DNA from: a virus
Lineage: Duplodnaviria; Heunggongvirae; Uroviricota; Caudoviricetes
Reading direction: 5' to 3' (one strand)
IMG/VR virus record: IMGVR_UViG_2740892273_000003
DNA length: 44,348 nucleotides
The notes below the pieces were generated by a model. The model was given only the letters and a program-made list of their open reading frames with translations, did not search any database and was not told the DNA's origin. Made by a program: the position numbers and the translations under genes. Below, one piece after another: positions 1-44,198 of this stretch; the stretch's first letter is position 1; every line of letters starts with the position of its first letter.

Positions 1-90
1 GAACAGGAGGGACAGCTGATAGAAACAGAAGCCACTGGAGCACCTCAAAAACACCATCATACACTAAATCAGTAAGTTGGCAGCATCACC
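1..90 (-). mobile_element. insA: IS1 terminal segment (terminal inverted repeat plus first ~12 codons of insA); element continues beyond the window start
   Basis: Reverse complement of 1-90 reads GGTGATGCTGCCAACTTACTGAT... followed by GTG GCT TCT GTT TCT ATC AGC TGT CCC TCC TGT TC (VASVSISCPSC), matching the IS1 end and InsA N-terminus from memory; similarity stops abruptly at 90/91. Confidence 0.75.
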
Positions 91-1421: not shown

Positions 1422-4400
1422 TATGCGAGCCTCACAATATAGTTAAATGCGATGTTTTTGACGGTGTTTTCCGCGTTACCAGCAGCGTTAACGGTGATGG
1501 TGTGTCCATGTGAACCAATCGCAACAGAGTGCGTATGAGCACCAATACCGACAGTATGCGCGTGTGCACCCGCAGATGCTGCTGTGCCGGACAGTGAGTG
1601 TGTATGGTTTCCTTCTGAAGATGATTTACCTACCCATTGGGAGGTGCCACTGGTTAATGAGCCACTGATACCAACCTGATTAGTCCCGCTAACTTGAGTA
1701 CTCCCTGCCGGAAACATTCCAGTAGGTTGACTCCCGCTATTCGTTCTGGGCCCAGTCTGACTATGTTGGTGGGCCCCAGCTGAACTTGTAGAGCCGCTCA
1801 GACTGTGCGTATGCGCCCCGGTGTTATTCGTGGATTTAGTGCCGTAATCAAACGACGATGTGGTTTTCGTCCCCAAATCCGTACTGGATGCGCTGGCGCT
1901 GTGGGTGTGCGATTTAATGCCATCCTGTTCCTGAGACAATACGGCACGACCACTGGCGGGCTTGCCCTTAATCGTCCAGCCACGCATATCAGGGATCACG
2001 CCTGACGGATAAGCGGCTGCAAGTTTCGGGTAAGCAGATTTGTCAAAAGTCTGCCCCTGCATCAGGGCATAACCAGACGGAACGGTATCTGATGGCCACG
2101 GGATTGGTGCACCGACTGGATAAAACTCTGCAGGAGGATGAGCCGAGGTGTAAAGCTGCGCCCACGGCGACCAGTTTGCGTCGGTCGTATCCCGTCGTGA
2201 ACGAATAAATGCCGGAGCATGAGCACCGCTTGTACCACTCCAGCCGATGAGTAACTCACCTTCGCCAACGGCTGTCATCCCTTTCAGGTGAATGATATTT
2301 CCATACGCTGTTGGATATCCGTTGTTATACACCTCGTATAACTCAAGACCTGCTGCCCCCTGCGTATTGTCTGTCAGCGCGGCTACCCGACCTTTTGAAG
2401 CCAGATTAACTGATGATACTGCTGTTCCACCTGACGGTAGCGCCCCGATCTCTGATGCCGTTGGCTTATTTCTGGAGTTATAGTCCCTTCGCCAGCCAGG
2501 TGAATAATCTGTTCCGTGATTAATATAGGTAAACTGGGCGTTGGTTGTTCCGCCACCGCTGGATGTGGTCGGAGTGGTAATGCGGATCGTCATCGCTGAC
2601 TTTATCCCCATTACTTCAATGACAGCTCCGGCGAGATGAATATTACCGCAGCCAGTATCAGTAATGATTTTATTATTGCCATAAGACCAGGAACCCTTGC
2701 ACATCCAGTATGGATGGTTAAATGCTCCCTGAGAATCCAGCCACTCGATAAACTGTGCAGTCGTCCAGTTTCCTGTTGTTGTGCTTACTGACCCACCGAA
2801 GGCACGGCAGGCACCAATATTTTTCGTAAAGGTGTCTTTGCCAGGGATATCCGCACCGTTCTGATCTTTCTGCAGACGTTTCTCAGCATTGTCATTGGCT
2901 GCTTTTACTGCCTTTGGCGTTGCCGCCAGCGTTTCAGACGTGCTGTTGGTCGCGCTGCTTAGCTGGATTATCCCTTTCTGTGCTGTCGTTGCATCCTGTG
3001 CGGTGTATTTCCCGTTAGCCAGGTCATACGCGGCCTTAACGGCTTTTGGTGTTGCCGCCAGTGACTCGGAAGTGCTGTTAGTCGCACTACTGAGCTGTAC
3101 TATCCCCTTTTTCGTCGTGCTCGCATCCTCAAGCGCCACGGCGGATGCAATATCCTCTGCCCGTTTTGCCGCTGTCTCAGCGCGCGTTGCTGCAGATTCC
3201 GCCGTACTTTTGCTCTGAGCTGCTGCCGTCGCACTACCAGCAGCCTCTGTCGCCTTCGTGGATGCCGTCGTGGCGCTGCCCTTCGCTGCTGACGCCTGTC
3301 TGGTCGCCTCATCTTTTGAAGCAGACGCCGATGATGCCGATGACGCCGCCGAACTGGCGGACGATGCGGCAGCCGTTTTTGAGGATTCTGCACGGGTTTC
3401 CGACGCTTTCGCGTTCGTTTCGGATGTCTTCGCTGCGGAAGCTGACCTCGCTGCTGCCGTGGCCTGCTCAGTGGCTTCGCCAGCCTTCGTTGTGGCTGTT
3501 GAAGCGGATGATGCGGCGCTTTCTGCCGATTTTCCGGCGGCGGTGGCACTGGCTGAGGCCTGCCCGGCACTTGTTGACGCGGCGCTGGCAGACGACGCAG
3601 CCGCTGTTTTTGAGCCTGCCGCAGCTGAGGCACTCTGTCCCGCTGCCGTTTCAGAAGACCTGGCGTTCGTCTCGGACGTTTTGGCCGCCTTCGCAGAATT
3701 TGCAGCCGCCGTCGCCGAGGAAGCTGCGCTACTGGCGCTTGATGATGCGTTCGTTTCTGATGATTTTGCCGCCTCTTTTGAAGCCGACGCATCCCGGGCT
3801 GAGGTGGCAGCTTCTGACGCTTTCGTGGTCGCGGTGGATGCAGAAGTGGCTGCTGATTGTTGTGACGCTGCCGCATTCGTTTCTAACGTTTTCGCCGCAC
3901 CGGCACTGGTAGCCGCCGCGCTTTTTGAGGACTCTGCAGCGGCAGCACTTTTTGAGGCTTCAGTGGCCTTTGTTGATGCCGTTCCTGCGCTGGAAGACGC
4001 TGACTGAGCCGACGAAGCGGCCTGTCCGGCTGACGTGCTGGCTGCACGTGCTGAATCTGCAGCATCAGTCGCATGGGTTGCCGCCTCACGGGCTGATGTG
4101 CTGGCATCGCTGGCTGATTTCTTCGCGGCTGCCGTGTTCTGTGCCACCGCGGACGCGTTACGCGCCACCTCTTCCACCATCAGCTCAAAACGGCGCAGTG
4201 CCTCCGGACGGGCATCATCCTCCGTCATGGCACCGAGAAAATCATTCAGCGTACCGGGTCGGGAATCTTCATACACGGTGATGGTCCCGGCATGTGACGG
4301 CGGGAATCCTTCCACCAACAGAATAACGCTGTACTGACCGTACTCAACGTCCATGCTGTAACGCCCGGCTTCATCCGGATTTTCTGAGGCCAGCGTGTTC

Positions 4401-4568: not shown

Positions 4569-5085
4569 TCAGAATTTATAACCGACACCCACGATGAAAC
4601 CGTCAGTGCGCCAGAGACGTGTTGCTGTGGCGACCGTCATCACTTCCGGTCAGCACATCGTGCGTTTTCCCCTTATTGTCAGTTACGCGGATATAATCCC
4701 CGGAAAAAGTCGACACACGGCTGTAAGCCACACCCGCCATCGCATACGCGCTGAACCATTCATTCACGCGCACAGACGGCCCCGCCATTACGCTGAACCA
4801 GCGGTTACGAACGGAATCTTCATGCCAGCGGGTATCGCTGTAACGGGTCAGCTGGCGATTCTTGTCTCCTGCATAGCTGAATGACGTCACCAGCCCCAGC
4901 GTATCCGTAAACTCATAACGGTATTTCACGTTAATCCCGTTCAGATCATCACTGCCGGGAACGTTGGTCCGGGCATGAAGATACCCCGCGCTCAGCGTGG
5001 ACTGATGTTCAGACGCCCATGCAGGCGCACCGGATACGGCCAGGCAAATGGCTGCGGACAAAATGGCTGCACAAACTTTACGCAT
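4569..5085 (-). pseudogene. lom: lom-like outer membrane protein gene, 3' region disrupted by a frameshifting deletion
   Basis: ORF 4603-5085 matches the lambda Lom N-terminal ~158 aa and stops after ...NTSLAH; the expected C-terminal strand DGFIVGVGYKF-stop is present in a different frame at ~4569-4604, so ~83 nt appear to be missing relative to lambda lom. Confidence 0.55.
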
Positions 5086-5155: not shown

Positions 5156-8100
5156 TCAACGAATACTGATGCCGGAAGCCGCTTTTTTGGTCACAATCAC
5201 CGTACAGTCGGTGATATTGCCTGCCCCCTGATTGCCTTTCTGGAAAATCTTAAACTCCAGAGTGACGCTACCACCACCACTAGGCATATCAATAACTGCA
5301 CTGTAACTACCGGGAATGGCACCTTTAGTTTCTCTGGATGCGATTAATACGCCGTTTTTGCGAACTTCAAAACCATAACCCGTGTATCGCGTGCCTCCTG
5401 GGTTATTTCCGCTCCCCGGATCGTCATACGCTATACCGTTAAAAATAATGGGCGGAATAATAATCTGGCGGTCAAAGTTATGATCATCGCTTATGGTGAC
5501 TGTAACCGTCCCGTTTGGTGTTTCCGTGTTACCCCACGTACCAGCCTGTTTCGGAAATGATTTGGATACAGCTTTAACGAAGTCACCTCTGACCTGAGTC
5601 GCCTCCAGCATGCCCTTAATCGTACAGTTTTCATTTACCGTGACATTGTTGAGCGTCCCGGCGTTCGCATTCACACTGCCACTGATATCCGCATTTTTAG
5701 CGGTCAGCTTTCCGTCCGGAGTCAGGGAAAATGCCGATGGATTTCCACCGCTGGTAATGGTGGGGGCCGTCAGGCGTTTCAGGAACACGTCGTTCATGAA
5801 TATCTGATCGCCCTGACCAACAAACATCGGTTTTGTGTTGCCATTCGCAGGATTAACCATCGCAATCCTGTCCGCCGCCAGCAGCACCTGACTCTGCATG
5901 CCGTCAGGGGTGTTCTCAATACCGGCACCAATACCCGCGATATAAAGGCGTCCGTCCTGCATCTGCTGCAGCTTCACAGCCCACATGCTGTTCAGGTTAT
6001 TATTTGTATCAACCTGAACCTTCTGTATCTGCTGAATTGCCGCACTCTGGTCTTCCAGTTTCTTATTGACGGTCTGCGTGATTTCATTGCTGACATCCGT
6101 AATGGACGTCCTGATTTCAGCCAGGTCAGGCGCAAGCTGACCGTTATCAATCTGCGTCCACAGCTCCTGAGCCAGATGGGTTTTCCCTATCTCGCCTTTG
6201 AAAAAATCCAGATAACCGGATGCATCATCACTCGGCTGACCAACAGCCTCCACGAATGCCGATTTGCCAACGGTGTTCACACTGCGGATATAAAAGTAAT
6301 AATCATGGCCCGGTTTGATATTGATACTGGCGGCTATCCAGTACAGCGCCGTGCCAAGATAGCGTGCTGTGGTTTCAACCTGCCTGATATCCGCAATCCG
6401 CTTTTCCGAGAACCAGAACTCAAACTGTACCGTCGGATCATAAACCGCAAGATGCGGCGTGGCGGTTATCTGAAAATAGCCCGGCGTCAGCTCAATCCGC
6501 GACAGCGCTGCCGGTGCGGCAATCCGGAACGATACCGACGCCGGATCGCCCTGCTGCCCCCACGCATTTACTGCCCGGACTGTCAGCCTGTAGTTCCCCA
6601 GCGCCAGTTGTGTGAAGCGGTAAGTGGTTTCCGTCGTCCGGGCCGTGCTGACCAGCCGCTCACTGCCGTCATCCGCTGTTACGGTCAGACGGAGCAGGAA
6701 GCTCACGCCCTTCACCACCTTCGGCGTGTCCCAGCGCGCCAGCACCTGATATTCCCCGCTGTCTGCGGTGACTTCGGCAGTCAGGTGCTGCACCGCTGGC
6801 GGCGTGACACCATTCACCGTGCCGCTCTGGTCGCCGTCAAAGTGCGCCCCGTTATCCACGATGGCTTCTTTTTCCGGCACATGCTGCACGGCGGTGATGG
6901 CATACGTGCCGTCGTCGTTCTCACGGATACTCACGCAGCGGAACAATCGCTGGTGCAGCGTCGGCAGCTTCAGCCCCCACACGCTGTATTCAGCAACACC
7001 GTCAGGAACACGGCTCACTTTTACCTTCACGCCGTCGGTGACGGACTGGACCTCCACGCTGACCGGATTCCCCTGCCCGTCAACCAGGCTTATCAGCGTG
7101 GTGCCGGAGGATGGCAGCGTGATTTCACGGTCGAGCGTCAGCGTCCGGGTCTGGCTGTTCACCGCCAGCACGCGCCCGCCGGTGCGGATACCGGCATAGT
7201 CATCATCGCAGATTTCAATGACATCGCCCGGTACATGACGAAGCCCTTCAGCACCCACGCTGAAATCCACGGTCTGCGTCTCCAGCAGTTCCGTTTTAAT
7301 CAGCCACAGCCCGGCGCGGTGTGCCTGCCCCCGGCTGGTACAGCCAAAGGCATCCATCTTCGTGACGTTACGACCGTAACGGACAATGGCCTGCGTATCC
7401 TCCACAAGCTCTGTCGCCGTCTCCCAGCCGTTATCCGGGTCAATCCAGTTCACCTCAACGGCATTATGGCGGTCTTTCAGGGCGCTGAAACTGTAGCGGA
7501 ACGGCGCGCCATCATCCGGCATCACCACATTACTGCGGTTATAGGCCCACACCTTATCCGACTGTCGGTCCTGCACGAACGTCAGCGTCTGCCCGTTCCA
7601 TACCGGCATACAGCGCATCGCCGAGCAGAAATCACTGAGCACATCCCACGCCTTGCGCTGTGTGGTCAGCCAGGCATTACAGGTGATGCGCGGCTCCGTG
7701 CTGCCAAAGCCGTCCGGCACCGACTGGTCACAGTACTGGCCGATGACATACAGCGCCCATTTATCCACATCTGCCGCACCAAGACGTTTCCCCATGCCAT
7801 AGCGCGGATGGGTCAGCATATCCCACAGACACCAGGCCATGTTGTTGCTGTATGCCGGTTTTAACGTTCCGTCCCAGATACCGCTGTATTGCCGCGTCTG
7901 CGGATTATAGTTCGACGGCACCTGCAGAATGCGCCCGCGAAGATGATAATTACGGCTCACCTGCTGGCTGCCGAACTGCTCCGAATCCACCTGTACGCCG
8001 ACCAGTGCCGTGTTCGGGTAGCACTGTTTCACATCGATGATTTCGGTGTATGACGACCAGAGCGTTTTGTTCTGCAGCTGGTCTGTGGTGCTGTCTGGCG

Positions 8101-8350
8101 TCATCCTGCGCATCCGGATATTAAACGGGCGCGGCGGCAGGTTATCCACCACCACCGAGGCCAGATACTGCGAGGTGGTTTTGCCCTTAATGGTGATGTC
8201 TTTTTCCGTCACCCAGCCACCGTTACGCTGTATCTGAACCAGCAGGCGAACTTCAGACGGATTCCTGTCTCCCTTTGAGGTGGTTTCCACCAGTGCCTGC
8301 ACACCGAAGGTAAAGCGCAGACGGTCAATGTTTGCCGACACTTTACCCAT
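5156..8350 (-). CDS. J: Tail tip / host specificity protein J (1064 aa; about 68 aa shorter than lambda J because of an N-terminal in-frame deletion)
   Basis: Near-identity to lambda J from [35 protein letters not shown] onward; begins MGKV then joins directly to SANIDRL; an in-frame TGA lies two codons upstream of the ATG. Confidence 0.85.
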
Positions 8351-8370
8351 TCCTCACGCTCCATAAACGA

Positions 8371-8410: not shown

Positions 8411-9082
8411 TCAGCGACCAATCACCACAACCTGACCACCGTCCCCTTCGTCTGCCGTGCTGATCTCCTGAGATACCACACGTGACCCCACGCGCATTTC
8501 ACCATACAGAACAGGCATAACATTGCCCTGGGCAACCATGTTATCCAGTGAGGAGAAATAGGTGTTCTGCTTACCGTTATCCGTTGTCTGTGTGCGGGGA
8601 GTTCTGGCTTTCGGTGCCAGCATCTGAGCCACACCGCCGAGCACCATACTGGCACCGAGAGAAAACAGAATGCCGGTCATACCACCGGCACCAATGGCAG
8701 CCCCCCATGCTGCAAGGGTGGCTCCGGCGGTAAAGAATGATCCGGCAATGGCGGCTGCTCCCAGGACAATCTGGAATACACCACCTGACTTGGCCCCGGC
8801 GACTCTGGGAACAATATGAATCACAGCGCCGTCAGGCAGAGCCTCATGTAACTGTGCCGTTAATCCGGACGTGCTAACATCCTGCCCGGCAATACGCACC
8901 TGATACCAGCCGTCGCTCAGCTTCTGACGAAACGCAGGGAGCTGTGTGGCCATCGCCCGGATGGCTTCGGCACCCGTTTTCACACGAAGGTCGATGCGGC
9001 GGCCAAATCGTTGCAAATCCCCGTAAAGGCAGATGCGTGCCATGCCCGGTGACGCCAGAGGGAGTGTGTGCGTCGCTGCCAT
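8411..9082 (-). CDS. I: Tail assembly protein I (223 aa)
   Basis: Length identical to lambda I; position between K and J; Gly/Ala-rich C-terminal region. Confidence 0.8.
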   Translation of the reverse strand: MAATHTLPLASPGMARICLYGDLQRFGRRIDLRVKTGAEAIRAMATQLPAFRQKLSDGWYQVRIAGQDVSTSGLTAQLHEALPDGAVIHIVPRVAGAKSGGVFQIVLGAAAIAGSFFTAGATLAAWGAAIGAGGMTGILFSLGASMVLGGVAQMLAPKARTPRTQTTDNGKQNTYFSSLDNMVAQGNVMPVLYGEMRVGSRVVSQEISTADEGDGGQVVVIGR

Positions 9083-9728: not shown

Positions 9729-10427
9729 TTACTGCGAAAGTTTGTTAATGGAAAGGAAGCCGCCAAAGTTGCCGACGTTATTGCGAAACTTACAGCCACT
9801 CAGGCATTTGCTGCATTTATCCTTCGTGATGTCGGACGTTGGCTGGTCATATTCATCCGCGACCGCCGGACCGTGATAACCGCACTCATCGCCGCGATAG
9901 GTCCAGGTGCAGGTGTTGGCCAGCATGATACGTCCCGGAAAAACAGCGCCATCTGTTTCCGTCGGCGTGGACAGTACAAAAGAGGCACTCACCGCGCTCA
10001 GTTCGCTGCACTGCTCAATGCGCCAGCGGCTGATCACCTCCTGCTCCGGATCGGCGTCACTGTTTCCGTTGACGAAGTTCACCGCATCCAGAAAACGGGC
10101 GTAAACCTTACGCCGGACCACCGTTCCGCCGACCAGACTCTGTAGATCTTCCGCCATCCCGGTGACCATACCGTACAGGTTAGAAACCATCAGCGTGGGG
10201 CGCGTACTGGTGCCTTTGCCATTCAGTTCAAAACCACTCCCCTGAATGGGATACGGCTGATACTGTCGCCCCTGCCAGGTGACCGGCTCACCTTTTTCGT
10301 TCTGCTCATTACAGAAAAAATAACGTTCTCCACCGACCTCTGTCAGATCGATTTCCCAGAGCACCACGCTGGCCGACTGCTCCGCACGGGTGCATTCATT
10401 CAGTGTTTCCTGCCGGATATCCTGCAT
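9729..10427 (-). CDS. L: Tail tip protein L (232 aa)
   Basis: Length identical to lambda L; Cys-rich C-terminus; gene order M-L-K-I-J. Confidence 0.8.
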   Translation of the reverse strand: MQDIRQETLNECTRAEQSASVVLWEIDLTEVGGERYFFCNEQNEKGEPVTWQGRQYQPYPIQGSGFELNGKGTSTRPTLMVSNLYGMVTGMAEDLQSLVGGTVVRRKVYARFLDAVNFVNGNSDADPEQEVISRWRIEQCSELSAVSASFVLSTPTETDGAVFPGRIMLANTCTWTYRGDECGYHGPAVADEYDQPTSDITKDKCSKCLSGCKFRNNVGNFGGFLSINKLSQ

Positions 10428-23880: not shown

Positions 23881-23955
23881 ACCCGCAATGATAATAATTA
23901 TCATCTGCATGCCGCAACACCTGAAAGTCAACGCGCCCTGAAAGCTGATTTGCTG

Positions 23956-24270
23956 TTACAAGCAATGCTTTTTTCTTTTTGTTTTATTGCTCATTGCCAC
24001 CAACTGTTCAGCCATCTCTCTTGTCACACTACCAGAAACCCTTTCTTGAATTTTCACAGAAAATTTTCTGGATGTAGTAGCATCGACATTAAAAAATCTG
24101 GATGTCATCAGGCAGTTATTAACAATTGGCATCAGCTCACTTACGATTGTAAAAAATTCCCGGTAAAGCTCATTTTGCTTTTCAACACACAGCTTTCCAC
24201 AATCGTCCAGCTTACGCTCAAGAGCACTTAACCTTTCCATTATTGAATTAATTTTTTGCAACTCTTTCAT
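23956..24270 (-). CDS. Hypothetical protein (104 aa) between the lysis genes and cos
   Basis: ATG at ~24270 preceded by AGGAGG at 7-nt spacing; the longer track ORF (to 24531) is an upstream extension running through a centromere-like palindrome. Confidence 0.5.
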   Translation of the reverse strand: MKELQKINSIMERLSALERKLDDCGKLCVEKQNELYREFFTIVSELMPIVNNCLMTSRFFNVDATTSRKFSVKIQERVSGSVTREMAEQLVAMSNKTKRKKHCL

Positions 24271-24294
24271 CAAAACCTCCTGACAAAGATACCG

Positions 24295-24310
24295 TGCGAC
24301 CACGGTCGCA
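24295..24310. repeat. sopC-like centromere palindrome copy 1 (TGCGACCACGGTCGCA)
   Basis: 16-bp inverted repeat with 7-bp arms TGCGACC/GGTCGCA; one of five copies in the window. Confidence 0.6.
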
Positions 24311-24514
24311 CGCTCCTGAATACATGCCCTGTTTCTTCCACCCTCGCACAGGACTGGCGAGCATGAGGGACAAACCCGCGAATCATTAGCGCGGTAAAAA
24401 CCCGGTGTGCATCGTTTTTGATTATTTCCGCACACTCGCGCAGAGGAGTTCCCCGTCGGGCTACGGTCATGGTTAATGCGGAAATACGGCGACGATGCAG
24501 CGCGGTATTTAATG

Positions 24515-24903: not shown

Positions 24904-25371
24904 TTAATTCGGGCATTGCGTCTTGATGTATTCCTGAAGCGTTCTCAGTGCTGTCTGGTCTCTGATGATTCCGTCCCGGATACCGAGAACGTTTCGTCCA
25001 GCAACTGGAGAGAGTTCGACGGTGGCATCATTGCCCATGCCGGAGGCGCTGGAGGTTTCGGCTGAGGATGGCACAGAGCATTTTCCTTTGACGAGCACCC
25101 GACCACCATTATCAAGCTTGCGCCGAAGAGCATCATTTTCAGCTTTCGCATCAGCCAACTCCTTCGTGTATTTTGCATCGAGCGCAGCAACATCACGCTG
25201 ACGCTGCTGCATGTCAGCGATGGTGGCGGTCGCCTGCTTCAGCTCACTGACTTTTTTATCACGCTGTTCTTTGTAGGCGATGGCGTTATCACGGTAATGA
25301 TTAACAGCCCACGACAGGCAGACGATGATGCAGATAACCAGTGCGGAGATAATTGCGGTTACTCTGCTCAT
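24904..25371 (-). CDS. Rz: i-spanin Rz
   Basis: [31 protein letters not shown]... (N-terminal TM, then coiled coil) matches the lambda Rz N-terminus; start overlaps R stop. Confidence 0.8.
24945..25151 (-). CDS. Rz1: o-spanin Rz1, embedded in Rz in the +1 frame
   Basis: [21 protein letters not shown]... has a lipobox (VVGC) followed by a proline-rich segment [11 protein letters not shown], as in lambda Rz1. Confidence 0.7.
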
Positions 25372-25868
25372 TGCTGCCCCCACAAACAGACTTCACGCTC
25401 AATCTCACGGCGAGTCATCAGCCCTTTCCATTGCTTGCCGCCAGCATATGTCCAGCGACGTAGTTGATCACATGCACCTTTGATATCGCCCTGGTTGATT
25501 TTGCGAAGAAGTGTCGATGTTCTGAAATTGCCTGCACCCACGTTGTAAACGAACGAGTAAAGAGCACCACGCGTTGTTTCCGGTATATCGACTTTGATGT
25601 ACGGGTTAATTTGTCTGGCGACAGTAGCAAGGTCTTTATTCAGGAGAGCTTTGCATTCTGCTTCGGTATACGTTTTACCGAGCATAATGTCTTTTCCTGT
25701 ATGCCCGTAACATACAGTCCATACACCAACGATGTCTTTGTAGGGGTTATGTCTCACACCTTCCAGACCATCGTTGCCGCTCGGACCAGAGATGAGCACA
25801 GATGCTATGGCAATAGCCCCGCCACCAATAGCAGTTGCGACAGCTTTGCGTAATGATGACTGCATCAT
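25368..25868 (-). CDS. R: SAR endolysin (T4-lysozyme-type muramidase with N-terminal signal-arrest-release domain)
   Basis: Gly/Ala-rich weakly hydrophobic N-terminus [18 protein letters not shown] followed by the E...D...T catalytic triad region [24 protein letters not shown]. Confidence 0.7.
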
Positions 25869-26137
25869 ATTTCCTTCGGTGCTCTCTTTCCCAATTCACC
25901 AATAACCATCGCCGTGGCGGAAATATTATTGGCATCAGTTTTATCCAATATGTCCTGCAATATCTTCGTGCGCTTCATCTGCTCGCGTTTATTGAGCCGG
26001 TATGTAAGTACACCGAGGATAATGCTGAACGCGACACCGATAATGAAGCCCCAATCCTGCAATGACAGGCTGGCAAAGAACGCAGTAAGACCAGCACTAC
26101 CATAAGATGCGCTGCTGTATCGTTCATCCATCTTCAT
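25865..26137 (-). CDS. S: Class II holin, pinholin-like (90 aa)
   Basis: Dual-start MKM..., two hydrophobic segments ([11 protein letters not shown] and [16 protein letters not shown]), charged C-terminus; immediately upstream of a SAR endolysin. Confidence 0.6.
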
Positions 26138-26232
26138 ATCTCTTACCTCGCAATAGTTGCTGAGGTTTCGGCTTGGAAACTATACGGCGAGAAATAACCC
26201 CATCAAAAACGGCAGGGGAATATATTCTTCAG

Positions 26233-27354
26233 TTACTCAAATAACTTTTTCACTTCATCAACTGTCTGAAGATAACGTTCACCCTCAATCTCAATACCGA
26301 TTGCCTGACGACCTAACTTCAGCGCGGCTTTAATAGTAGAGCCTGATCCCATAAAGAAATCGGCAACGATATCTCCGGGGCGGGAACTACTTTTTATAAT
26401 ATGTTCCATCATCGCTGCAGGTTTTTCACATGGGTGCTTGCCAGGATAATATTGCACAGGAGGAAACTCCCATACATCGGTATAAGGTACATCAGCAGTA
26501 ACATGAAATGGGCGGCGCAAATTTTCATACTGAGCCTTCAAATCATCATACTGCTTCTTTACTTCCTCATAACGCAATTTCAGATCGCTATAACGCTTTT
26601 CATGTTCTGAATAATCAACATTAAAAGGATATGGACACGGGACACCGAGTGAATCTGCCTTCCTGCGAAATAATTCGCATAGTTTATTAAAATCACTTAA
26701 TGATGGAAGCCGCCACTGCGAATAAGAAAACCAGTGCGAACACATCTGCTTTCCTGTTGCTGAATTAATGTCTGCGGCTGATATATCTAACTGACGGCGA
26801 GCCAGCGAAAAAGCATCAATTAGTGGAGAAAAAATATTTTTTCTTAAATCTGCACATTTTGAAGCATAACCTGACTGACCTTTAGCATAACCTGACGCGC
26901 CGTAATGCTCTGCAAATAATATTCTTTCAGTGGCAGGAAAATAAGCCCTTAAACTTTCTTTATGACAACCGCGCCACATACCACTGGGTTTAGCCCAAAT
27001 GATATGGTTCAGAACATTGAAACGGTCGCGAGTTAATAATTCAATTTTTGACGCAAGGCGAGAGCCGGTAAACATATACAGGCTGCCATTAGGGGCCAAT
27101 ATCCGCCAAAATTCTGCCAAAAATTCATCAATCCACCCCAAAAAGTCAGCATCGCTATCCCACTGGTTATCCCATGCGTTAGCCTTTACGCCGAAGTATG
27201 GTGGGTCTGTTGCAATCAAATTGACCGAGTTATCAGGGATGGTTTTGATAAATTGCAGAGAATCTGCGCAAACGAGTTGCGCGCCATGAATATTAGTGGT
27301 TTTGAACATAGCTATTATTTTTTTGCCTGGGTAAGCTAACCCGGCGATGCGCAT
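26233..27354 (-). CDS. Orphan DNA amino-methyltransferase (N6-adenine or N4-cytosine); true start may be the internal MFKTT
   Basis: DPPY motif near the N-terminus (LIATDPPYFG) and FxGxG AdoMet motif near the C-terminus (DFFMGSGST); no adjacent restriction endonuclease gene. Confidence 0.75.
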   Translation of the reverse strand: MRIAGLAYPGKKIIAMFKTTNIHGAQLVCADSLQFIKTIPDNSVNLIATDPPYFGVKANAWDNQWDSDADFLGWIDEFLAEFWRILAPNGSLYMFTGSRLASKIELLTRDRFNVLNHIIWAKPSGMWRGCHKESLRAYFPATERILFAEHYGASGYAKGQSGYASKCADLRKNIFSPLIDAFSLARRQLDISAADINSATGKQMCSHWFSYSQWRLPSLSDFNKLCELFRRKADSLGVPCPYPFNVDYSEHEKRYSDLKLRYEEVKKQYDDLKAQYENLRRPFHVTADVPYTDVWEFPPVQYYPGKHPCEKPAAMMEHIIKSSSRPGDIVADFFMGSGSTIKAALKLGRQAIGIEIEGERYLQTVDEVKKLFE

Positions 27355-27443
27355 CGCGGGTGGGCTTTAGGTTCAGCCTATAGCTCTGGCATGGGTTGAC
27401 CGCAGGACAAGCTGCAACTTGTCCTGCACCCACTTTTCAGGCA

Positions 27444-27467
27444 CAAAAAAACCGCCATAAAGGCGGC
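27444..27467 (-). terminator. Intrinsic terminator (tR'-like) between a candidate late promoter and the methyltransferase/lysis/virion genes
   Basis: Minus strand reads GCCGCC-tttat-GGCGG followed by TTTTTTT; preceded by hairpin GTTGGGT-tttttgt-ACCCAAC and followed by a 10-bp-stem hairpin GCAGGACAAG-n6-CTTGTCCTGC. Confidence 0.6.
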
Positions 27468-27505
27468 TTGTTGGCTGTTGGGTACAAAAAACCCAACTTA
27501 ACAAA

Positions 27506-27534
27506 ACAATAACTAAAAACCGTAATTTTGCCAA
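27506..27534 (-). promoter_or_regulatory. Candidate late promoter (PR'-like): TTGGCA, 17-bp spacer, TATTGT
   Basis: Sigma70-like hexamers on the minus strand ~30 nt upstream of the hairpin/terminator series; a centromere-like palindrome sits just upstream. Confidence 0.45.
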
Positions 27535-27554
27535 GCTTTTTCGTTTTTGTGCTG

Positions 27555-27570
27555 TGCGACCGTGGTCGCA
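27555..27570. repeat. sopC-like centromere palindrome copy 3 (TGCGACCGTGGTCGCA, opposite orientation)
   Basis: Same arms as copies 1 and 2 with the central dinucleotide GT instead of AC; extended palindrome CTGTGCGACCGTGGTCGCACAG. Confidence 0.6.
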
Positions 27571-27576
27571 CAGTTT

Positions 27577-27804
27577 TTAGAAAGTTGCCTGCTTATATTC
27601 ATCGGTCAAAGAATATCGACCAGACCCGCTACGCTTTGCAACCCCAAAACAGATCATCTGTTCGATGATAAATTCAACGGCAGCTTGACTCAAAAAACAG
27701 GCTTCGCTTAACTCTTTCAGGGAAATGCGTGGGTATCCACGCATAACACATTCCACACTCAGGGCCGCTTCAGTCATATTTCCACGAATTTCATTAATAT
27801 TCAT
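27577..27804 (-). CDS. Hypothetical small protein (75 aa), possible winged-helix DNA-binding protein
   Basis: ORF with a helix-turn-helix-like segment ISLKELSEACFLSQAAVEFI; immediately upstream of the candidate late promoter. Confidence 0.45.
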   Translation of the reverse strand: MNINEIRGNMTEAALSVECVMRGYPRISLKELSEACFLSQAAVEFIIEQMICFGVAKRSGSGRYSLTDEYKQATF

Positions 27805-27817
27805 AACGCCTCTCTAA

Positions 27818-28057
27818 TCAATCTTGAAACTGGAAATCAACATCAGCCATAAAGCGGTTCAACTCAGCCAGTTTTGGCCCCATAGTCCCAACTAAGCGAC
27901 CAGCCAGTCGGTCTGCCAGGTTGGTACTGTTGAAACCATATTCCTTTTCGAAACGTTCAACCTTCTGCCACAACTCATACAGTTCGTTAGCTATCTCCGC
28001 AACGTCGTCGCGCATTTTTTCGTTACCTTGATAATTCATAATATCCTCCAAATTCAT
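27818..28057 (-). CDS. Hypothetical acidic small protein (79 aa)
   Basis: ORF in an operon with the 75-aa gene; divergent from the toxin-antitoxin pair. Confidence 0.45.
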   Translation of the reverse strand: MNLEDIMNYQGNEKMRDDVAEIANELYELWQKVERFEKEYGFNSTNLADRLAGRLVGTMGPKLAELNRFMADVDFQFQD

Positions 28058-28204
28058 ATAGTTAGTGGGTTATTGCCCCTCAATGACACGAACTGTAACT
28101 CTGCCAAACGAACACATCCAGTGTTATTTTTCACTTTTTAGTGAAATTTTTAATTTGCGCTTTTTTCTTGTTTTGGTGTATTTTATGGCTATGGAGGCTA
28201 TAAT

Positions 28205-28516
28205 ATGTTTAACGTGATAACCCACCCTGCAGCACTGGATGAACTGCTTGAACTACCAGATGATTTGCGAGGTCGCATGACCAGATTAATTGAGCGACTG
28301 GAGAAGGAAGGCAACAAACTGAAGATGCCCCATAGCCGTGTAATAGGTGGAGGGCTTTTTGAACTACGAGTAGGGGATAAAAACATCGCAAGAACGCTGT
28401 ACGCCTACGCGACTGGTAACGAAATTTATCTATTGCATGCATTTGTAAAAAAGACACAGAAAACACCGGTGAAGGCTATTGAAATCGCCAGAACTCGCCT
28501 GAAGGAGATGAACTGA
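28205..28516 (+). CDS. Type II toxin, RelE/HigB superfamily (N15 gp49-like, 103 aa)
   Basis: Small basic protein resembling gp49-like/HigB toxins; GGAGG RBS 7 nt upstream; encoded upstream of an HTH protein with ATGA start/stop overlap; opposite strand to flanking phage genes. Confidence 0.65.
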   Translation: MFNVITHPAALDELLELPDDLRGRMTRLIERLEKEGNKLKMPHSRVIGGGLFELRVGDKNIARTLYAYATGNEIYLLHAFVKKTQKTPVKAIEIARTRLKEMN

Positions 28517-28803
28517 TGAAAGCGAAAGGCATCCCGTTTAACGAAGTAAAAGAAAAACTTCTCAACACTCCAGAAGCCATCAAAGGATATGAAGAGGCCG
28601 ATAAAGAGCTGGAGATGGTCGAAATGTTATACGAAATGAGGGAAAGAGCAGGTTTAACGAAGTCAGCTCTGGCTGAACGAATGGGATTGCGCCCGTCAGC
28701 TATCAGCCGCCTGGAAAGCAATCCTTTAGGGGCAAGCATGAAAACTTTATCAAAATATGCCCAAGCATGCGGTGCAACGATTAATATTAATGCCGTCTAT
28801 TGA
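28516..28803 (+). CDS. HTH (XRE-family) antitoxin, HigA-like (95 aa)
   Basis: Helix-turn-helix segment LTKSALAERMGLRPSAISRLE; translationally coupled to the toxin gene. Confidence 0.65.
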   Translation: MKAKGIPFNEVKEKLLNTPEAIKGYEEADKELEMVEMLYEMRERAGLTKSALAERMGLRPSAISRLESNPLGASMKTLSKYAQACGATININAVY

Positions 28804-28846
28804 TTAGACCCTTTTCGCTACCCCGTCCAGAAGGGCGGGGTGTGTA

Positions 28847-29065
28847 TCAATGATGCAAACACTCAACAGCAATAACTTGTTGGCAATTCTGAGCAATCTC
28901 CCGCGACATACTAACAAGTCGTGAAATCTCGCCAAGATGCAAGCTGGCTTCTGGAGAAGCCAGAGCAACGCTAACCAGATCCAAAACGGCGTCGATGTCT
29001 TTTAGGTTTGATCCGAGTTCTTCAAGAGTTGATACAGGTGCTTCAGTCATTGAATCTAATACCAT
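28847..29065 (-). CDS. Small protein (67-72 aa) downstream of a LexA box; candidate SOS-inducible antirepressor
   Basis: ORF with alternative ATGs at ~29065 and ~29050; a LexA-box-like sequence lies ~25 bp upstream. Confidence 0.45.
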   Translation of the reverse strand: MVLDSMTEAPVSTLEELGSNLKDIDAVLDLVSVALASPEASLHLGEISRLVSMSREIAQNCQQVIAVECLHH

Positions 29066-29087
29066 TTAATTAAAAAAGGTTATTTGA

Positions 29088-29107
29088 TACTGTATAAAAT
29101 TACAGGG
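29088..29107 (-). promoter_or_regulatory. LexA box (SOS operator) overlapping a candidate promoter
   Basis: TACTGTATAAAATTACAGGG fits CTGT-N8-ACAG with an AT-rich centre; on the minus strand it overlaps TTGAGT-17-TACAGT promoter-like hexamers. Confidence 0.6.
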
Positions 29108-29134
29108 TAAAACTCAAATTTTATAGCCAACTTT

Positions 29135-29289: not shown

Positions 29290-29298
29290 TTATCCCTC

Positions 29299-29312
29299 CG
29301 TGACCAGTCACA
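29299..29312. repeat. Palindrome CCGTGACCAGTCAC (GTGAC-N2-GTCAC), copy 1 of 2
   Basis: Shares the 14-bp core GTGACTGGTCACGG (reverse complement) with the palindrome at 40633-40652. Confidence 0.5.
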
Positions 29313-34760: not shown

Positions 34761-37700
34761 ATGACATTAAACGATTTCTATGCGGATCGCTTTGGCAGCG
34801 ATCCGTTCTCGCTAATTGAAGCAGCACGGGATGAACTAACCGAGCTGGCACAGATGGCTGGTATCAACTGGTCTGCCTGTTCCGACAACATCCAACTCAA
34901 CCCTCGCGGGGGTGTTGAGCGTTACTCTTCATACAATAAAACATCCCCAGAAGCTCTCGAAAAGAGCCTCAAAGGACGCGTAGAAATTTACTCCCGGCTG
35001 GAACACAGCAAAGGGATTGATTACCCGTTCATTAACTTCGTCCATAAAGGCAGCGATGCTGGCTCATGGAGCGGTTTCTCCTTCCTGTTTTCTGAATATC
35101 GCCGTGAGCAACAACGGAATAATGCGACCGTGGTCGCACAACCGGAAGAAGAACGGGCAAGAATAGAACGTCAGGCCGAAGCACGTCGTCGCCGTGAAGA
35201 ACAAAAACGAATTAATGACCTGAAAAACAACCAAATGGACCATGAACGTTTGCTGGGATGGCTGGCATTCCACAGTGCTTGGGAACATGCTCCTGCAGAA
35301 GACGGCTCATGGCCATATGCGATTAAAAAAGGTATTCGTGACGTTTTTAATTCGTGTGATGTGCGTCGCGTGACCAGTCACGACAGCGCAAAATGGAGCA
35401 GGGGGCCAACCACGTATATGGCTATCCCTCTGGCTCACCTGGACGGTCGTTACGATGGTCGTATTGTTGGTTGGCAGCGAATCGACAAACAAGGTGGAAA
35501 ATACCAGACCAGCGCCGTAACCAGCGGCGATTTCGTCGGTGCCTGCTTTGTTATCGGTGAGCTGAAAGGGGCGCAAAACATCGCTGTTACAGAAGGTTTT
35601 GCTACTGGTGCATCCATCTGGCTTGCCACGAAAAAAGATAAACGCTTTGACGCTGTGGTTGTCGCTGTATCCGCTAACAACATGGTTCATGTTGTGGAAC
35701 AACTGGTAAACATGTACCCGGCGGCAAAAATCACCTGCGCACTGGATAATGACCGGAAATCAGCTACAGAAGGAAAAGGGAATACCGGCCTGCGGACTGG
35801 CTATGAAATCTTATCGAAATTCAACGATGTCCGCTGCGTCTATCCAACTTTTGAAGACGATCCGCAAATGGAGTGCAGTGACTTCAACGACCTGCACAAA
35901 CTACGTGGACTTCGTGAAACAGCACGTCAACTGTTTGCAACTGCAAACCGCCTGAAAACTGGCACTGATTTGCTATCTCTGACGCTCAACCGCCTGAAGA
36001 CAATTAAGCGGGATAACCGTCGTACTTTTGCCAAAGAGCTGCTGAGAGCAGTGGATATTGGCATGCTAACCTGTCCGGTTCCTAACAGTCCGTCAGACTT
36101 ATTTAACATGTTCTGCATCGTCCTGCGTGAAATTGGGCTGGAAAATATCTATCGCGCTACGGTAAAAGACCACATTGCCCGTCGCCTGAATAAAAAGTGC
36201 CGTATTGCCCAGGCTCCGCGCTCATTCAGCGAACGAATAACTGATCCCAATAAACGTCCTCAACATATCACCTATAAGCGTTTTGAAACTTCGGTAATGA
36301 CCGATGACGTCCTGAAGTATGTGCAATCACTACAGGGGATAGTCATCGTTCGTGCTGGTATGGGTTCCGGCAAATCTACTGGATTGTTACGACCTTTAAT
36401 GCATAGCTCAGAACGTGGTATCTCTGTTGCTCACCGTGTTTCCCTTATTGGTGGCCTGTGGGAAATGATGACAGAAGGAAAAGGTGTAAAAGCCGATATC
36501 CTGCACTATCAGGACCCTGGCTATCAGGAAATGGCTCCATACGCCAGTAAACTGACCATCTGCATAAACTCGATTGTTAAAAACTGCTGGCAACCATTGA
36601 TGCGCCAGCACGACTATTTTGGCTTTGACGAGGCCACGCAAGGGCTACGTGCCGTTCTTTCCGGTCGGGCTATGGAAAACCCGGTGGCTGTATTCAATAC
36701 GTTAATTGACGCGCTGGCCAGAACGGAACAACACCCAATAATGGTGGATGCTGATGCGAACGATCTGCTGGTTGACCTGGCTGAACTGGCTATGAAACGC
36801 CGTGAAGAACTAGGTTTACCGGCATGGCTGCAGATCCACGTAATTGAATTACCTGTTGATGTTCGCAACCGCGAAACAGGTGAGCCAATCCGGGTTTTTT
36901 ATACAGAAAAAGATCGCATTATGACCGAGGTGGTGAAAGCTGTATCGAATGGCGAAAAAATCATGTTGGCCACCGACAGCTCCACCTTTGCAGAAGATGT
37001 GACCGCCACCCTGAGAATGCATTTTCCTGGTAAGAAATTTCTGTGTGTAAACCAGAAAAACAAACCAGAGCCAGAAGTTGAAGCATTTACCAATCAACCG
37101 AAAAAGATGGTCAAAAAATACGACGGCCTGATTTATAGCCCGTCTATTTCATCCGGTGTGTCGATTGAGCAAAAACATTTTGACCGTCATTTCGGCATGT
37201 TCTGTGGTGAAGTTGTACCCAGCGACGCAGTGCAAATGCTACGCCGCGACCGTACAGCAAAAGAATTTATTATCGGCTTTGATAAAGCTCGCGCAAAACG
37301 TGAAACTGACCCGCAAAAAATAGAACGAGCATTCGCCCAGGCATTGCTTGCTACCGCAGGCATGAACGGTGAACTGACGGATGTCGTTTTCGATGGCGAC
37401 CGTATATCAATGGGGGTGGCCAATACCGACTTTACCAGGATGAAAATTAAAGCAGCCGCAATTGAAGCGTCTGCGCGTAACGACTACGCCAGCAACATGA
37501 TCTGCATCATGCACAGCGACGGTTATAAGGTATCGCCGCTGGCCACCGATTATGCTGCGAATGATATCGGTAAAGATCTGCGTAAAGAAGCGCGGGATAT
37601 TGTGTGGGAACAGACACTGGATCTGCATCTCAATACAGAAACTCCACAAGAATCAGAGCGTGAAGAACTGCTAAAAAAACGCGCGCTGACGCTTGAAGAA

Positions 37701-38756
37701 CAAGCAAAACTTGTCCGCTGGGATATTGAGAACGAACTGAAACTACCGGTTGAAGAAGGCACGCTGAAATTCTATTTCGATGGTGCTCGAGACAAAGTTC
37801 GCCGCTATGAAACAATGCTTTTAGATGAGGTAACAGCTCGTCGTTACGACCGGGAAGAAGCAGCCATCAATTTTACCTACGCATACCGTCAGGCGGGACA
37901 GTGGCAATATTTTGTAGTGACCGCGATGACTCGCGAGCAGGCTGATGATGTCTTTAAAACTAAATTCCCTGGAATAATCGACTACAAGGTAAAAGCTACT
38001 CCTACTGTTGAAGTCGGGGCGCGCGGTTTCTATGCGCTTAAATCAGCAACTCTCCGGCAGTACTTTATCGACTGCGGTATCAACCCTGAGACTATGACCG
38101 GCGAGGCGACTCAGGAGCGTCTCAAATTCGCTCGAGATAACCTCATGACAGCCGAACGCCGTGACCTGTTGAATAACGTTCTGCACATTGGTGGTTTTAT
38201 GACGCCAAAAGGGAAGCCTAAAGTGCCGGAAGCGTTGTTTAAAAACATTTGCGACTCTCTTGGCCTTAAAACAGGTAAACGTCGCGGCAGAGACGGCGAT
38301 AAGCGTCCAACCTTGCGTTTTGTTGAGCCTGAATCAGCGGCATTTATGCTGGATATTCTTGTTCAGCGTCAGAAAGATGGCCTAACCCTAAAAACGCGTA
38401 AAGCCGAGAAGACAGCCATCGAAATGGATCGCGATTTGGATCTCAATATATATATGGATGATAAAACGCGATCCACAAACGAGCAGGTTCAAAACGCCCC
38501 TCATTCAGTAATTTCTGAGGCTTTGGCCGTATTGCCGGTGGCTGTTCCTGAGTCCTGGGCGATGAGTGCGCTTTCCGGTGAGGAGCTGGCCACTATGTCA
38601 TCATGGTCATCAGCCAGCATAGCTATGACGTTTGCATCTCTGTATCTCACAGAGTTCATGGATCACTTGTCCAGCAATGAATTGCGGCGGTTACGAGAAT
38701 ACATTACCGGGAATAGCTCATGCAGCTACGAAGAGCAGGGCGCTTTCTATGGGTAA
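34761..38756 (+). CDS. repA: Replication protein RepA, multidomain primase-helicase (1331 aa, N15 RepA-like)
   Basis: Toprim-like primase motifs (NIAVTEGFATGASI; CALDNDRK), Walker A (GMGSGKST) and Walker B (YFGFDEAT) in the central region; size close to the ~1.3 kaa N15 RepA as recalled. Confidence 0.8.
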   Translation: MTLNDFYADRFGSDPFSLIEAARDELTELAQMAGINWSACSDNIQLNPRGGVERYSSYNKTSPEALEKSLKGRVEIYSRLEHSKGIDYPFINFVHKGSDAGSWSGFSFLFSEYRREQQRNNATVVAQPEEERARIERQAEARRRREEQKRINDLKNNQMDHERLLGWLAFHSAWEHAPAEDGSWPYAIKKGIRDVFNSCDVRRVTSHDSAKWSRGPTTYMAIPLAHLDGRYDGRIVGWQRIDKQGGKYQTSAVTSGDFVGACFVIGELKGAQNIAVTEGFATGASIWLATKKDKRFDAVVVAVSANNMVHVVEQLVNMYPAAKITCALDNDRKSATEGKGNTGLRTGYEILSKFNDVRCVYPTFEDDPQMECSDFNDLHKLRGLRETARQLFATANRLKTGTDLLSLTLNRLKTIKRDNRRTFAKELLRAVDIGMLTCPVPNSPSDLFNMFCIVLREIGLENIYRATVKDHIARRLNKKCRIAQAPRSFSERITDPNKRPQHITYKRFETSVMTDDVLKYVQSLQGIVIVRAGMGSGKSTGLLRPLMHSSERGISVAHRVSLIGGLWEMMTEGKGVKADILHYQDPGYQEMAPYASKLTICINSIVKNCWQPLMRQHDYFGFDEATQGLRAVLSGRAMENPVAVFNTLIDALARTEQHPIMVDADANDLLVDLAELAMKRREELGLPAWLQIHVIELPVDVRNRETGEPIRVFYTEKDRIMTEVVKAVSNGEKIMLATDSSTFAEDVTATLRMHFPGKKFLCVNQKNKPEPEVEAFTNQPKKMVKKYDGLIYSPSISSGVSIEQKHFDRHFGMFCGEVVPSDAVQMLRRDRTAKEFIIGFDKARAKRETDPQKIERAFAQALLATAGMNGELTDVVFDGDRISMGVANTDFTRMKIKAAAIEASARNDYASNMICIMHSDGYKVSPLATDYAANDIGKDLRKEARDIVWEQTLDLHLNTETPQESEREELLKKRALTLEEQAKLVRWDIENELKLPVEEGTLKFYFDGARDKVRRYETMLLDEVTARRYDREEAAINFTYAYRQAGQWQYFVVTAMTREQADDVFKTKFPGIIDYKVKATPTVEVGARGFYALKSATLRQYFIDCGINPETMTGEATQERLKFARDNLMTAERRDLLNNVLHIGGFMTPKGKPKVPEALFKNICDSLGLKTGKRRGRDGDKRPTLRFVEPESAAFMLDILVQRQKDGLTLKTRKAEKTAIEMDRDLDLNIYMDDKTRSTNEQVQNAPHSVISEALAVLPVAVPESWAMSALSGEELATMSSWSSASIAMTFASLYLTEFMDHLSSNELRRLREYITGNSSCSYEEQGAFYG
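35123..35138. repeat. sopC-like centromere palindrome copy 5 (TGCGACCGTGGTCGCA), inside repA
   Basis: Same palindrome embedded in the repA coding sequence (encodes NATVVAQ). Confidence 0.6.
38424..38476. other. Candidate replication origin inside the repA 3' region
   Basis: Imperfect inverted repeats GGATCGCGATTT / AAACGCGATCC containing GATC sites, flanking an ATATATATAT tract. Confidence 0.35.
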
Positions 38757-38940: not shown

Positions 38941-38944
38941 AAAT

Positions 38945-42296: not shown

Positions 42297-44198
42297 TTAA
42301 CCGAAATATGTCAGCCATGCTAACTGCATTGCTGACATGGGGCTGTTTGCACTGCCGGACCACGCATAATTCTGGCCATTATAATGAAACTCAACAACGT
42401 ATGAGCCATCACCAATATTTCTCACCGGCTTAAATACCGGCTTAGATACAGGCGAAGAAGGTGCAGGCGGTTGCTGTTCTTCTACGCTATCTTCCTCTTC
42501 CTCTTCCTCTTCCTCTATCTCAATTTCGTCGTCATCCAGATCGTCATCCTCTGATAATTCATCCGCCAGTTCAGGTATTGCTTCCAGTTCTTCTTCGTCA
42601 GGCATAACGATTTCTGGAGTATCTATTTTCAGTTGCCATTGTCCGTTTTCGCCAACAAATTGCCCCAGAGCATCAGCAGCAAATTCCAGGTATCGACTAA
42701 TCATTGTTGGGCTAAATTTGAACGCTCTTAGAGTGCTGTTCGTGATTTTTATAGAGGGGTCCTGCTCTACCAGCTGCTTAACTGTGTTATGCAGACGAAC
42801 CCCGGCATCTCCTCTGGCGAATCCAGGCATTTCGTCATCAAGCTGCTGCAATGCTTCCAGCCTGGTATTTTCGTTTCCAGTATTTGGCCTCCATGTCTTT
42901 GAGAAGTTGGCCAGCTTGAATTGCTTATAGTGTAATTGAGTGTTTTCATCGTCATGGCCTAAAATTTCCATAAAGAAAACATCTTCATCTACGTTTTTCC
43001 AACGAGGATCTACGCGGAAAAACATTTCATACGCAATACGGGCATAAATAGCACGACTATCTTTATAAACACGGCGGTCATCTTTGAAAAATGATTTAAC
43101 CCACGGGTTAAAAGCCTTTGCTAATATGGCATTAATACGTCCGTTTTCAGAGCGTGTGTCGTTATCTCCATAACCTTTAACGACATCATCAAAATCAGAT
43201 GCTGCTGGGCATGAGCGAAGTACATTTATTAAATAAACAAATGTTTTTGCTTCGCATAATGTATATATTTTTCTGGTTATATCATCAGAAGTTCTTTTTT
43301 TAGCTTGGCCTAAAAAATCAACGGTATACTTACCAGAAACAGTAAATGTACCTTGATACATAATCTCAATCATTCGTCTTCCTGACAATGCAGCAAGTGC
43401 AAATGCCAAAGGAGCCATACCTGAACGAGTGTTTAGATTATTTAATGTAGCAGGGCTATTTATAATATCGTAAATAGCTTGCATATATTTAGGGTAATCA
43501 ATGACCACCACGTTACGTTTCTTATTGTGCAGAACGTCCGCCCATCGTTGCTGGATAGATGCACGTTCGGCAGGGCTTAGTTGAAGATGATAGAGAATCT
43601 CATGGTTAACTTTTAGCTGATTCAACTCCTCAAGTAAGGCAGATCCTTGCTGTAGTAATTTATATAAATAATCGCGCTTATCTTTCCAGTTATCGCTGGT
43701 TAAATCAGAAATGGCGAATTGCCACTCTTTATATTTATTTGATAATTTCAATAACTTATTATGACTTTTGTTATCGCCAATTCTGATATTAGATAAATCT
43801 TCTGATAGAGGGAGAATTAATTTTAATTTTGCCTGTAAAGCTGACATTCTCTGGCGAATATCGGCAGCAGGTAGAGAAAGCCATGACAATAGCTCCTCAT
43901 TATATAAAGGATACTTTTCAGATAGGCGATGTATATTTTTTTCAAAGCTATGATGAAGTTTATCATCAAACCGTTTTCTGGCCCTGCTCATATAGGCATT
44001 GAATGTGTTGGCTGTAATTCTTTTTTCTAATCCTTTCCCCCTAAACTTTCGCTTGTCATTAAATAATGCATTTTTAAATTTTAATGCAACAGCCTTTATT
44101 TTTTTTGTTTTCTCCCCTTGAGGACGGTCAGAGTTATCTATTGACTCAACATCGCTAACAAGTGAGTTTATTAATTCACCGATTTTTACTTTGCTCAT
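42297..44198 (-). CDS. telN: Protelomerase (telomere resolvase), TelN-like (633 aa)
   Basis: N-terminus MSKVKIGELIN..., internal blocks such as RITANTFNAYMSRARKRFDD and WRPN..ENTRL, and a C-terminal acidic tract match the N15 TelN protein as recalled; length is close to the 631-aa N15 protein. Confidence 0.8.
   Translation of the reverse strand: MSKVKIGELINSLVSDVESIDNSDRPQGEKTKKIKAVALKFKNALFNDKRKFRGKGLEKRITANTFNAYMSRARKRFDDKLHHSFEKNIHRLSEKYPLYNEELLSWLSLPAADIRQRMSALQAKLKLILPLSEDLSNIRIGDNKSHNKLLKLSNKYKEWQFAISDLTSDNWKDKRDYLYKLLQQGSALLEELNQLKVNHEILYHLQLSPAERASIQQRWADVLHNKKRNVVVIDYPKYMQAIYDIINSPATLNNLNTRSGMAPLAFALAALSGRRMIEIMYQGTFTVSGKYTVDFLGQAKKRTSDDITRKIYTLCEAKTFVYLINVLRSCPAASDFDDVVKGYGDNDTRSENGRINAILAKAFNPWVKSFFKDDRRVYKDSRAIYARIAYEMFFRVDPRWKNVDEDVFFMEILGHDDENTQLHYKQFKLANFSKTWRPNTGNENTRLEALQQLDDEMPGFARGDAGVRLHNTVKQLVEQDPSIKITNSTLRAFKFSPTMISRYLEFAADALGQFVGENGQWQLKIDTPEIVMPDEEELEAIPELADELSEDDDLDDDEIEIEEEEEEEEDSVEEQQPPAPSSPVSKPVFKPVRNIGDGSYVVEFHYNGQNYAWSGSANSPMSAMQLAWLTYFG

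Follow-up and report, generated by a model that had tools for sequence, protein, structure and literature searches.

How much of the J protein has been lost at the N terminus in this element, and can a working tail still be made with what is left? We addressed this question in a stretch of viral DNA of 44,348 nt (hereafter the window; IMG/VR virus record IMGVR_UViG_2740892273_000003, Caudoviricetes), where gene J, encoding the tip attachment or central tail fibre protein, is present as a deletion allele, a 1064-aa ORF at 5156..8350 on the minus strand. A preliminary description of the sequence had correctly given the lengths of this protein and of lambda J (1064 versus 1132 aa) and the direct joining of MGKV to SANIDRLRF, both of which agree with the ORF list and BLASTP; from these it had deduced an in-frame N-terminal deletion of ∼68 codons, covering lambda J residues 4-71. 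The deletion is real and in frame, but its size is 101 codons. BLASTP against lambda J (1132 aa, from J02459) pairs window residue 5 with lambda residue 106, where SANIDRLRF begins (its earlier placement ‘∼100 residues into’ lambda J was close), and a DNA alignment with lambda and with the prophage of E. coli 120899 has a single gap of exactly 303 bp. By both kinds of alignment the missing segment is lambda J residues G4-T105, swapped in the window protein for one Val. Thus the pairwise alignment with lambda J, which had been suggested as a check, confirms the deletion and corrects its limits to residues 4-105. The net shortfall of 68 aa relative to lambda arises because the 101 lost residues are offset by 33 extra ones, situated in the fibre and receptor-binding part of the protein: a 28-aa shaft insertion and small indels in the receptor-binding domain (BLASTP).

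The closest full-length J that we found belongs to a prophage of E. coli strain 104 (1165 aa). Window J residues 5-1064 align with residues 106-1165 of this protein at 97% identity with no gap, and the 101 residues are the only length difference between the window protein and this representative of its own J type. Identity to lambda J from residue 106 on is 80% (BLASTP). In the displayed alignment with lambda DNA, the upstream flank of the gap has one mismatched base, ∼22 nt before the ATG, and the downstream flank is ∼97% identical. Judged by these alignments the lesion is discrete, with flanks 97–100% identical to relatives, and chance is not an issue. The translation start region (8351..8365, minus strand) is unchanged: GGAGCGTGAGGA stands ahead of the ATG, all 15 bases ahead of it are those of lambda, and an in-frame TGA two codons upstream leaves no room for a longer start, as the preliminary description had pointed out from the translation. 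The allele thus keeps its native ribosome-binding site, ATG, reading frame and stop codon. In the Pfam search of window J the Phage-tail_3, Ig_J, Ig_J_second, Phage_Tail_Tip and Ig_GpJ_C profiles all exceeded their cut-offs and were covered almost completely. The C-terminal third of J (5156-6160, minus strand), which carries the 28-aa shaft insertion, has a receptor-binding domain strongly diverged from the LamB-binding domain of lambda. Since this domain is diverged from lambda and 97% identical to strain 104 J, the receptor recognized by the window protein may differ from LamB.

Assembly of the lambda tail is initiated by J (PMC3224144). The preliminary description had assigned the lost segment to the tail-tip hub, and the lambda structures bear this out, with the HDII-insertion at residues ∼1-71 and FNIII-A at residues 72-215 (PMC10721106; PMC11101478). 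The N terminus of gpJ forms strands β1-β4 of the HDII-insertion domain (β4 being residues 65-71), while FNIII-A (residues 72-215) is inserted before β13 (216-223) (PMC10721106). The HDII-insertion domain is completed by the C terminus of gpL, which complements the N terminus of J; one domain of T5 pb3 is the counterpart of the N terminus of gpJ plus the C-terminal Fe-S domain of gpL (PMC10721106). In the lambda tip gpI contacts both the HDII-insertion and FNIII-A (PMC10721106; PMC11101478). Both HDII-ins1 and HDII-ins2 of gpJ move on tip opening, and it is ins2 that defines where the DNA channel is narrowest (PMC11101478).

When mapped onto these limits, the deleted segment is, by analogy with lambda, β1-β4 of the HDII-insertion together with the start of FNIII-A, both domains being cut internally. 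The conserved N-terminal ∼70 residues, which make up HDII-insertion β1-β4, are absent from window J (BLASTP, DNA alignment). The FNIII-A (HDII-ins2) remnant, equivalent to lambda residues 106-215, lies at 8009..8338 on the minus strand, as delimited with the published domain limits (PMC10721106), Pfam and AlphaFold2. The Pfam profile FNIII-A_GpJ (PF24801, 126 positions) is matched from position 24 to 125 by window residues 6-106, versus 3-125 in lambda. An AlphaFold2 model of a full-length relative has strands at 23-30, 35-42, 45-47, 64-71, 83-93 and 100-104, all in the deleted part, and the remnant is predicted to lack the first two β-strands of FNIII-A (83-93 and 100-104 of the full-length relative). 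The mean pLDDT is 68.9 for the N terminus of the full-length relative and 59.0 for the truncated N terminus of the window protein, where it falls to 28-38 in the stretch expected to pair with the missing strands (residues 99-140). The low values are taken as consistent with structural damage, and not as proof of it; the models, of moderate confidence, are used here for strand positions only and are too weak to judge stability.

The lost N-terminal segment is present, wholly or partly, in every other sequence of the conservation alignment, into which fragments from a homologue search with the first 200 aa of the window protein were also fed; 15 of 17 sequences begin at their own N terminus. It is conserved down to 43–49% identity (Actinobacillus and a Rhodocyclaceae bacterium) and is found in closer sequences from Morganella, Edwardsiella, Yersinia and Salmonella as well. 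We also considered attachment of the side tail fibre to the deleted region of J and rejected it, the Stf collar being located at the gpV/gpM junction (PMC12617516).

To what extent such an allele occurs elsewhere was assessed with two junction queries (401 and 80 bp), which were compared with 5,426 complete E. coli genomes and 50,697 phage records. In both collections all of the best-ranked matches, which are the ones listed, consist of two pieces 303 bp apart, several of them 100% identical on both sides; a one-piece 100% match would have come first. No plasmid in PLSDB spans the junction, none covering more than one side, and the exact junction string has no match in IMG/VR, the GTDB species representatives or the JGI metagenomes. 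The exact 1064-aa protein is not on record. The homologue search with the first 200 aa returned short partial J fragments only, none reaching the MGKV start, which makes it uninformative on other short J proteins. Within the databases searched the short-J allele is a singleton. J itself is common: J-like copies occur in most of the E. coli genomes searched, and the genomes that have any carry them at a median of 2 places. Impaired virion assembly or adsorption, which had been suggested earlier, is plausible, and it agrees with the conservation of the segment in distant homologues and with the failure of these searches to reveal a second copy of the junction.

The genes whose products meet the deleted segment are intact. 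Gene I (8411..9082, minus strand) codes for the tail-tip plug or assembly protein, the structural partner of the deleted J segment in lambda (PMC10721106), and matches in tblastn the full annotated 190 aa of the I protein of plasmid pZ1323HEC0355-3 at 98% identity. Gene L (9729..10427, minus strand), encoding the hub HDI and Fe-S domains, is matched over 232 of 232 aa, also at 98% identity. From Nu1 to I, every morphogenesis protein is full length and 92–100% identical to its counterpart in pZ1323HEC0355-3 (tblastn), and tblastn with the annotated proteins of this plasmid shows that the gene order M-L-K-I-J-lom-stf-tfa is kept in the window.

Downstream of J, lom (4603..5085, minus strand) is a pseudogene of 160 aa versus 199 aa in relatives, owing to an 83-bp frameshifting deletion; tblastn recovers residues 1-159 of 199 only. 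A four-way DNA alignment places this deletion between two CTGGCG direct repeats, of which the copy at 4609-4614 remains, and slipped mispairing between the repeats explains it.

The rest of J bears no mark of decay. In a comparison of five J genes, the codon changes specific to one J (synonymous/non-synonymous) number 27/15 in the window, 31/13 in strain 104 and 19/10 in strain 120899; these lineage-specific counts give no signal of relaxed selection on the rest of J. The deletion is probably recent, because the remainder of the gene has no sign of relaxed constraint; the full length of the other morphogenesis genes also argues for recency.

We favour, as the probable explanation, a recent one-off and unselected deletion in J, probably one that inactivates the tail, in an E. 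coli phage-plasmid that persists as a plasmid. The extent and the frame of the deletion are read from the sequence itself, and it is to loss of function that structure, conservation and rarity together point. Alternatively, and this is the main rival reading, the short J could be functional, the HDII-insertion and FNIII-A being dispensable and a working tip still being nucleated, perhaps with altered stability or triggering. We consider this unlikely, even though the allele has much of the appearance of a tolerated one: the reading frame is kept, start and stop are in place, no downstream domain is damaged, there is no non-synonymous excess in the rest of the gene and every partner gene is intact. 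In-frame status alone says little either way, as one in three random deletions would keep the frame. HDII-ins1 and HDII-ins2 are, moreover, lineage-specific, some siphophage hubs being devoid of them (PMC13243795), and the hubs of T4, 80alpha and T6SS likewise have neither of the two (PMC10721106), so that the hub core could still assemble. In lambda, however, the gpI plug is anchored by these insertion domains, which also pair with gpL, and the cut in window J, instead of following domain borders, removes four strands of one domain and two of the other. Conservation of the segment across distant homologues tells against dispensability, as does the absence of any such allele from the best-ranked matches, out of thousands of J copies.

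The deletion junction itself is codon 4 (GTG, Val; 8339..8341, minus strand; alignments and blastn). The coding strand reads ATG GGT AAA GTG TCG GCA across it, where relatives have AAA GGC at the left endpoint and ATC ACG TCG at the right one (DNA alignment). The G at 8341 agrees with the left flank and the G at 8339 with the right flank, while the T at 8340 (coding strand) agrees with neither. In blastn against strain 104 J the HSPs stop at 8339 and resume at 8341, leaving out 304 nt of the relative; hence, 304 nt have been swapped for 1 nt at window position 8340. The residue preceding SANIDRL is Thr in all 53 of the 53 relatives where it is readable, and a putative parent with GTG at codon 105, which would provide a GTG right flank, has no match in IMG/VR. 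Slipped mispairing was considered as the origin of the J deletion and rejected, as its endpoints are without repeats: no direct or inverted repeats bridging them were found in the relatives. On these alignments the junction is an illegitimate joint without microhomology. It arose in a repeat-independent event with a net removal of 303 bp, either by loss of 304 bp and addition of one T, or by loss of 303 bp along with a C>T change.

As to the DNA that surrounds J, comparison with known plasmids identifies the window as a contig of an N15-like telomere phage-plasmid (TelN, RepA) with a lambda-like morphogenesis arm, and not as a lambda prophage, a context that the preliminary description had left unregistered. 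The N15-like right arm spans 24300-44348, with cB, cro and Q at around 32900-34515. Positions 25001-44348 are 97–98% identical to E. coli plasmids with a protelomerase and a CyRepA1-family RepA. The CyRepA1-family plasmid replication protein RepA (34761..38756, plus strand) matches RepA of pZ1323HEC0355-3 over 1331 of 1331 aa at 99.85% identity, and the TelN-like protelomerase (42297..44198, minus strand) matches its counterpart there over 641 of 641 aa at 97.8% identity (both by tblastn). TelN, RepA, cB, Cro, Q, a RelE/ParE pair, a methyltransferase and lysis proteins are all full length and 96–100% identical to those of pZ1323HEC0355-3; a few small hypothetical proteins of the N15-like arm are divergent, split or absent with respect to this plasmid. 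The join between the lambda-like and N15-like arms is the same as that of pZ1323HEC0355-3, which is a finished plasmid.

Several further features of the window may be noted. In the RelE/ParE pair, at 28205-28803 on the plus strand, a RelE/ParE-family toxin of 103 aa, which is 100% identical to that of the relative, adjoins an HTH antitoxin (95 aa), and such a toxin-antitoxin pair would favour plasmid retention. The regions 39759-40571 (plus strand) and 29308-30479 (minus strand) contain ORFs of 270, 176, 100 and 108 aa that have no Pfam match and sit where the window aligns partly or not at all with pZ1323HEC0355-3; they are possible accessory cargo. The interval 23910-24333, between Nu1 and a DUF4406 gene, gives no blastn alignment to this plasmid, whereas the flanking genes align; by analogy with lambda, cos would be expected here.

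At the right, the window ends 150 bp past the protelomerase gene, stopping 21 bp before the place where pZ1323HEC0355-3 has its 42-bp telO palindrome (window position 44348 is equivalent to position 3308 of segment L003 of that plasmid, where the palindrome is at 3246-3287). At the left, positions 1..90 (minus strand) are the terminal 90 bp of IS1, matching sequence that lies under annotated IS1A transposase genes. Positions 1-420, which include the junction of IS1 with AT-rich DNA, have a single-piece 99.3% match in 79 complete E. coli genomes. The ∼750 bp at 91-840 appear AT-rich by eye and hold no ORF of at least 90 aa. The layout of this end, IS1 followed by the AT-rich stretch, tfa and stf, is shared with the strain 104 chromosomal prophage beside bioA/ybhB, and this left end was probably acquired by recombination. 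Genes of the sopAB-type partition system (sopA/parB) and of an invertase or recombinase, which in pZ1323HEC0355-3 follow the fibre genes at L003 74-2809, gave no tblastn match in the window. Since the window ends in IS1 where sopAB would follow, the partition genes may be on another contig; alternatively, the IS1 event may have removed them. Given its termination in IS1 on one side and 21 bp before the telO position on the other, the window has the look of a draft contig from a linear phage-plasmid.

These ends bear on a further alternative, in which J is full length in the real molecule and the deletion was introduced by sequencing or assembly. A window resembling a draft contig that stops inside IS1 and just short of a telomere palindrome, the several near-identical J copies that are usual in an E. 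coli genome and would complicate assembly, and the uniqueness of the allele are all in keeping with an artefact, yet we judge it distinctly improbable. Collapse of repeats in assembly could not create the J junction because no direct or inverted repeats link its endpoints; the orphan base at the junction is typical of a real illegitimate joint; and the flanks are collinear, matching one J type throughout. The contig may still be chimeric, which would alter the replicon context and leave the lesion in J as it is.

That the truncated J is kept as a poison subunit, co-trimerizing with the near-identical J of co-resident or superinfecting lambdoid phages and blocking their tail assembly, is hardly credible: its trimer-forming fibre and hub core are indeed intact and 95–100% identical to J of other E. 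coli prophages, and J-like targets are present in most E. coli genomes searched, but there is no sign of the spread or recurrence that selection would produce, J, as a late-operon gene, would be expressed only once the element is induced, and the same contig bears other plain decay lesions (lom and IS1). Nothing points to a dominant-negative role, and we hold it very unlikely that the short J will prove either dominant-negative against competing lambdoid prophages or evidence that the lambda tip works without an intact HDII-insertion/FNIII-A cone.

Returning to the unselected, probably tail-inactivating deletion in a phage-plasmid, its consequences can be outlined by analogy with lambda. The product of the allele would be a 1064-aa J with intact HDII, HDIII, HDIV, FNIII-1/2, shaft, fibre and receptor-binding domain, lacking HDII-insertion β-strands 1-4 and the first two strands of FNIII-A, with neither domain cleanly removed. 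In lambda, these two domains join the Fe-S domain of gpL to complete a composite domain, hold the gpI plug via β-sheet augmentation and provide the cone that closes the tip. With both of them cut, the tail tip would most probably not be formed or not be sealed, and induction would yield DNA-filled heads and few or no infectious particles. The element would survive by plasmid replication (RepA, TelN and the RelE/ParE-type pair), for which virions are not needed; a tail-defective copy can persist because the element is a phage-plasmid.

A phage-plasmid with a probable tail knockout and the rest intact is in line with the view that virion genes are under relaxed selection where an element is maintained as a plasmid. 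The allele also offers a natural test of the need for the HDII-insertion/FNIII-A cone in assembly of the lambda tip and in retention of the gpI plug. At the same time, gene J is very well known and the element is of a known kind; the short J, new as an allele, is in this respect one more mutational lesion.

Four known systems are the nearest to what we have described. Lambda gpJ (1132 aa; PDB 8IYK, 8XCG and 9E7M) shares with window J its position in the series M-L-K-I-J-lom-stf, the same Pfam series, ∼95% identity over lambda residues 106-820 and the identical 15 bases before the ATG; window J differs in the absence of G4-T105, in the 28-aa shaft insertion and in the divergent C-terminal receptor-binding domain. 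The J of the strain 104 prophage (WP_001695588.1, NZ_CP029164.1) is like window J in its receptor-binding domain and in the stf, tfa, AT-rich stretch and IS1 that lie downstream; unlike the window, this prophage has a complete J N terminus and an intact lom, is chromosomal, beside bioA/ybhB, and does not lie on an N15-like replicon. The E. coli N15-like linear phage-plasmid pZ1323HEC0355-3 (NZ_CP148365.1) shares the backbone and its join to a lambda-like arm running from Nu1 to tfa, but has a full-length J (1131 aa), an intact lom, sopAB, the invertase and the telO palindrome. Finally, the defective (cryptic) lambdoid prophages of E. coli resemble the window in having deletions and IS insertions in late genes; in contrast to them, decay in the window is minimal, the other head, tail, lysis and regulatory genes that we compared are full length, and the lesion in J is in frame.
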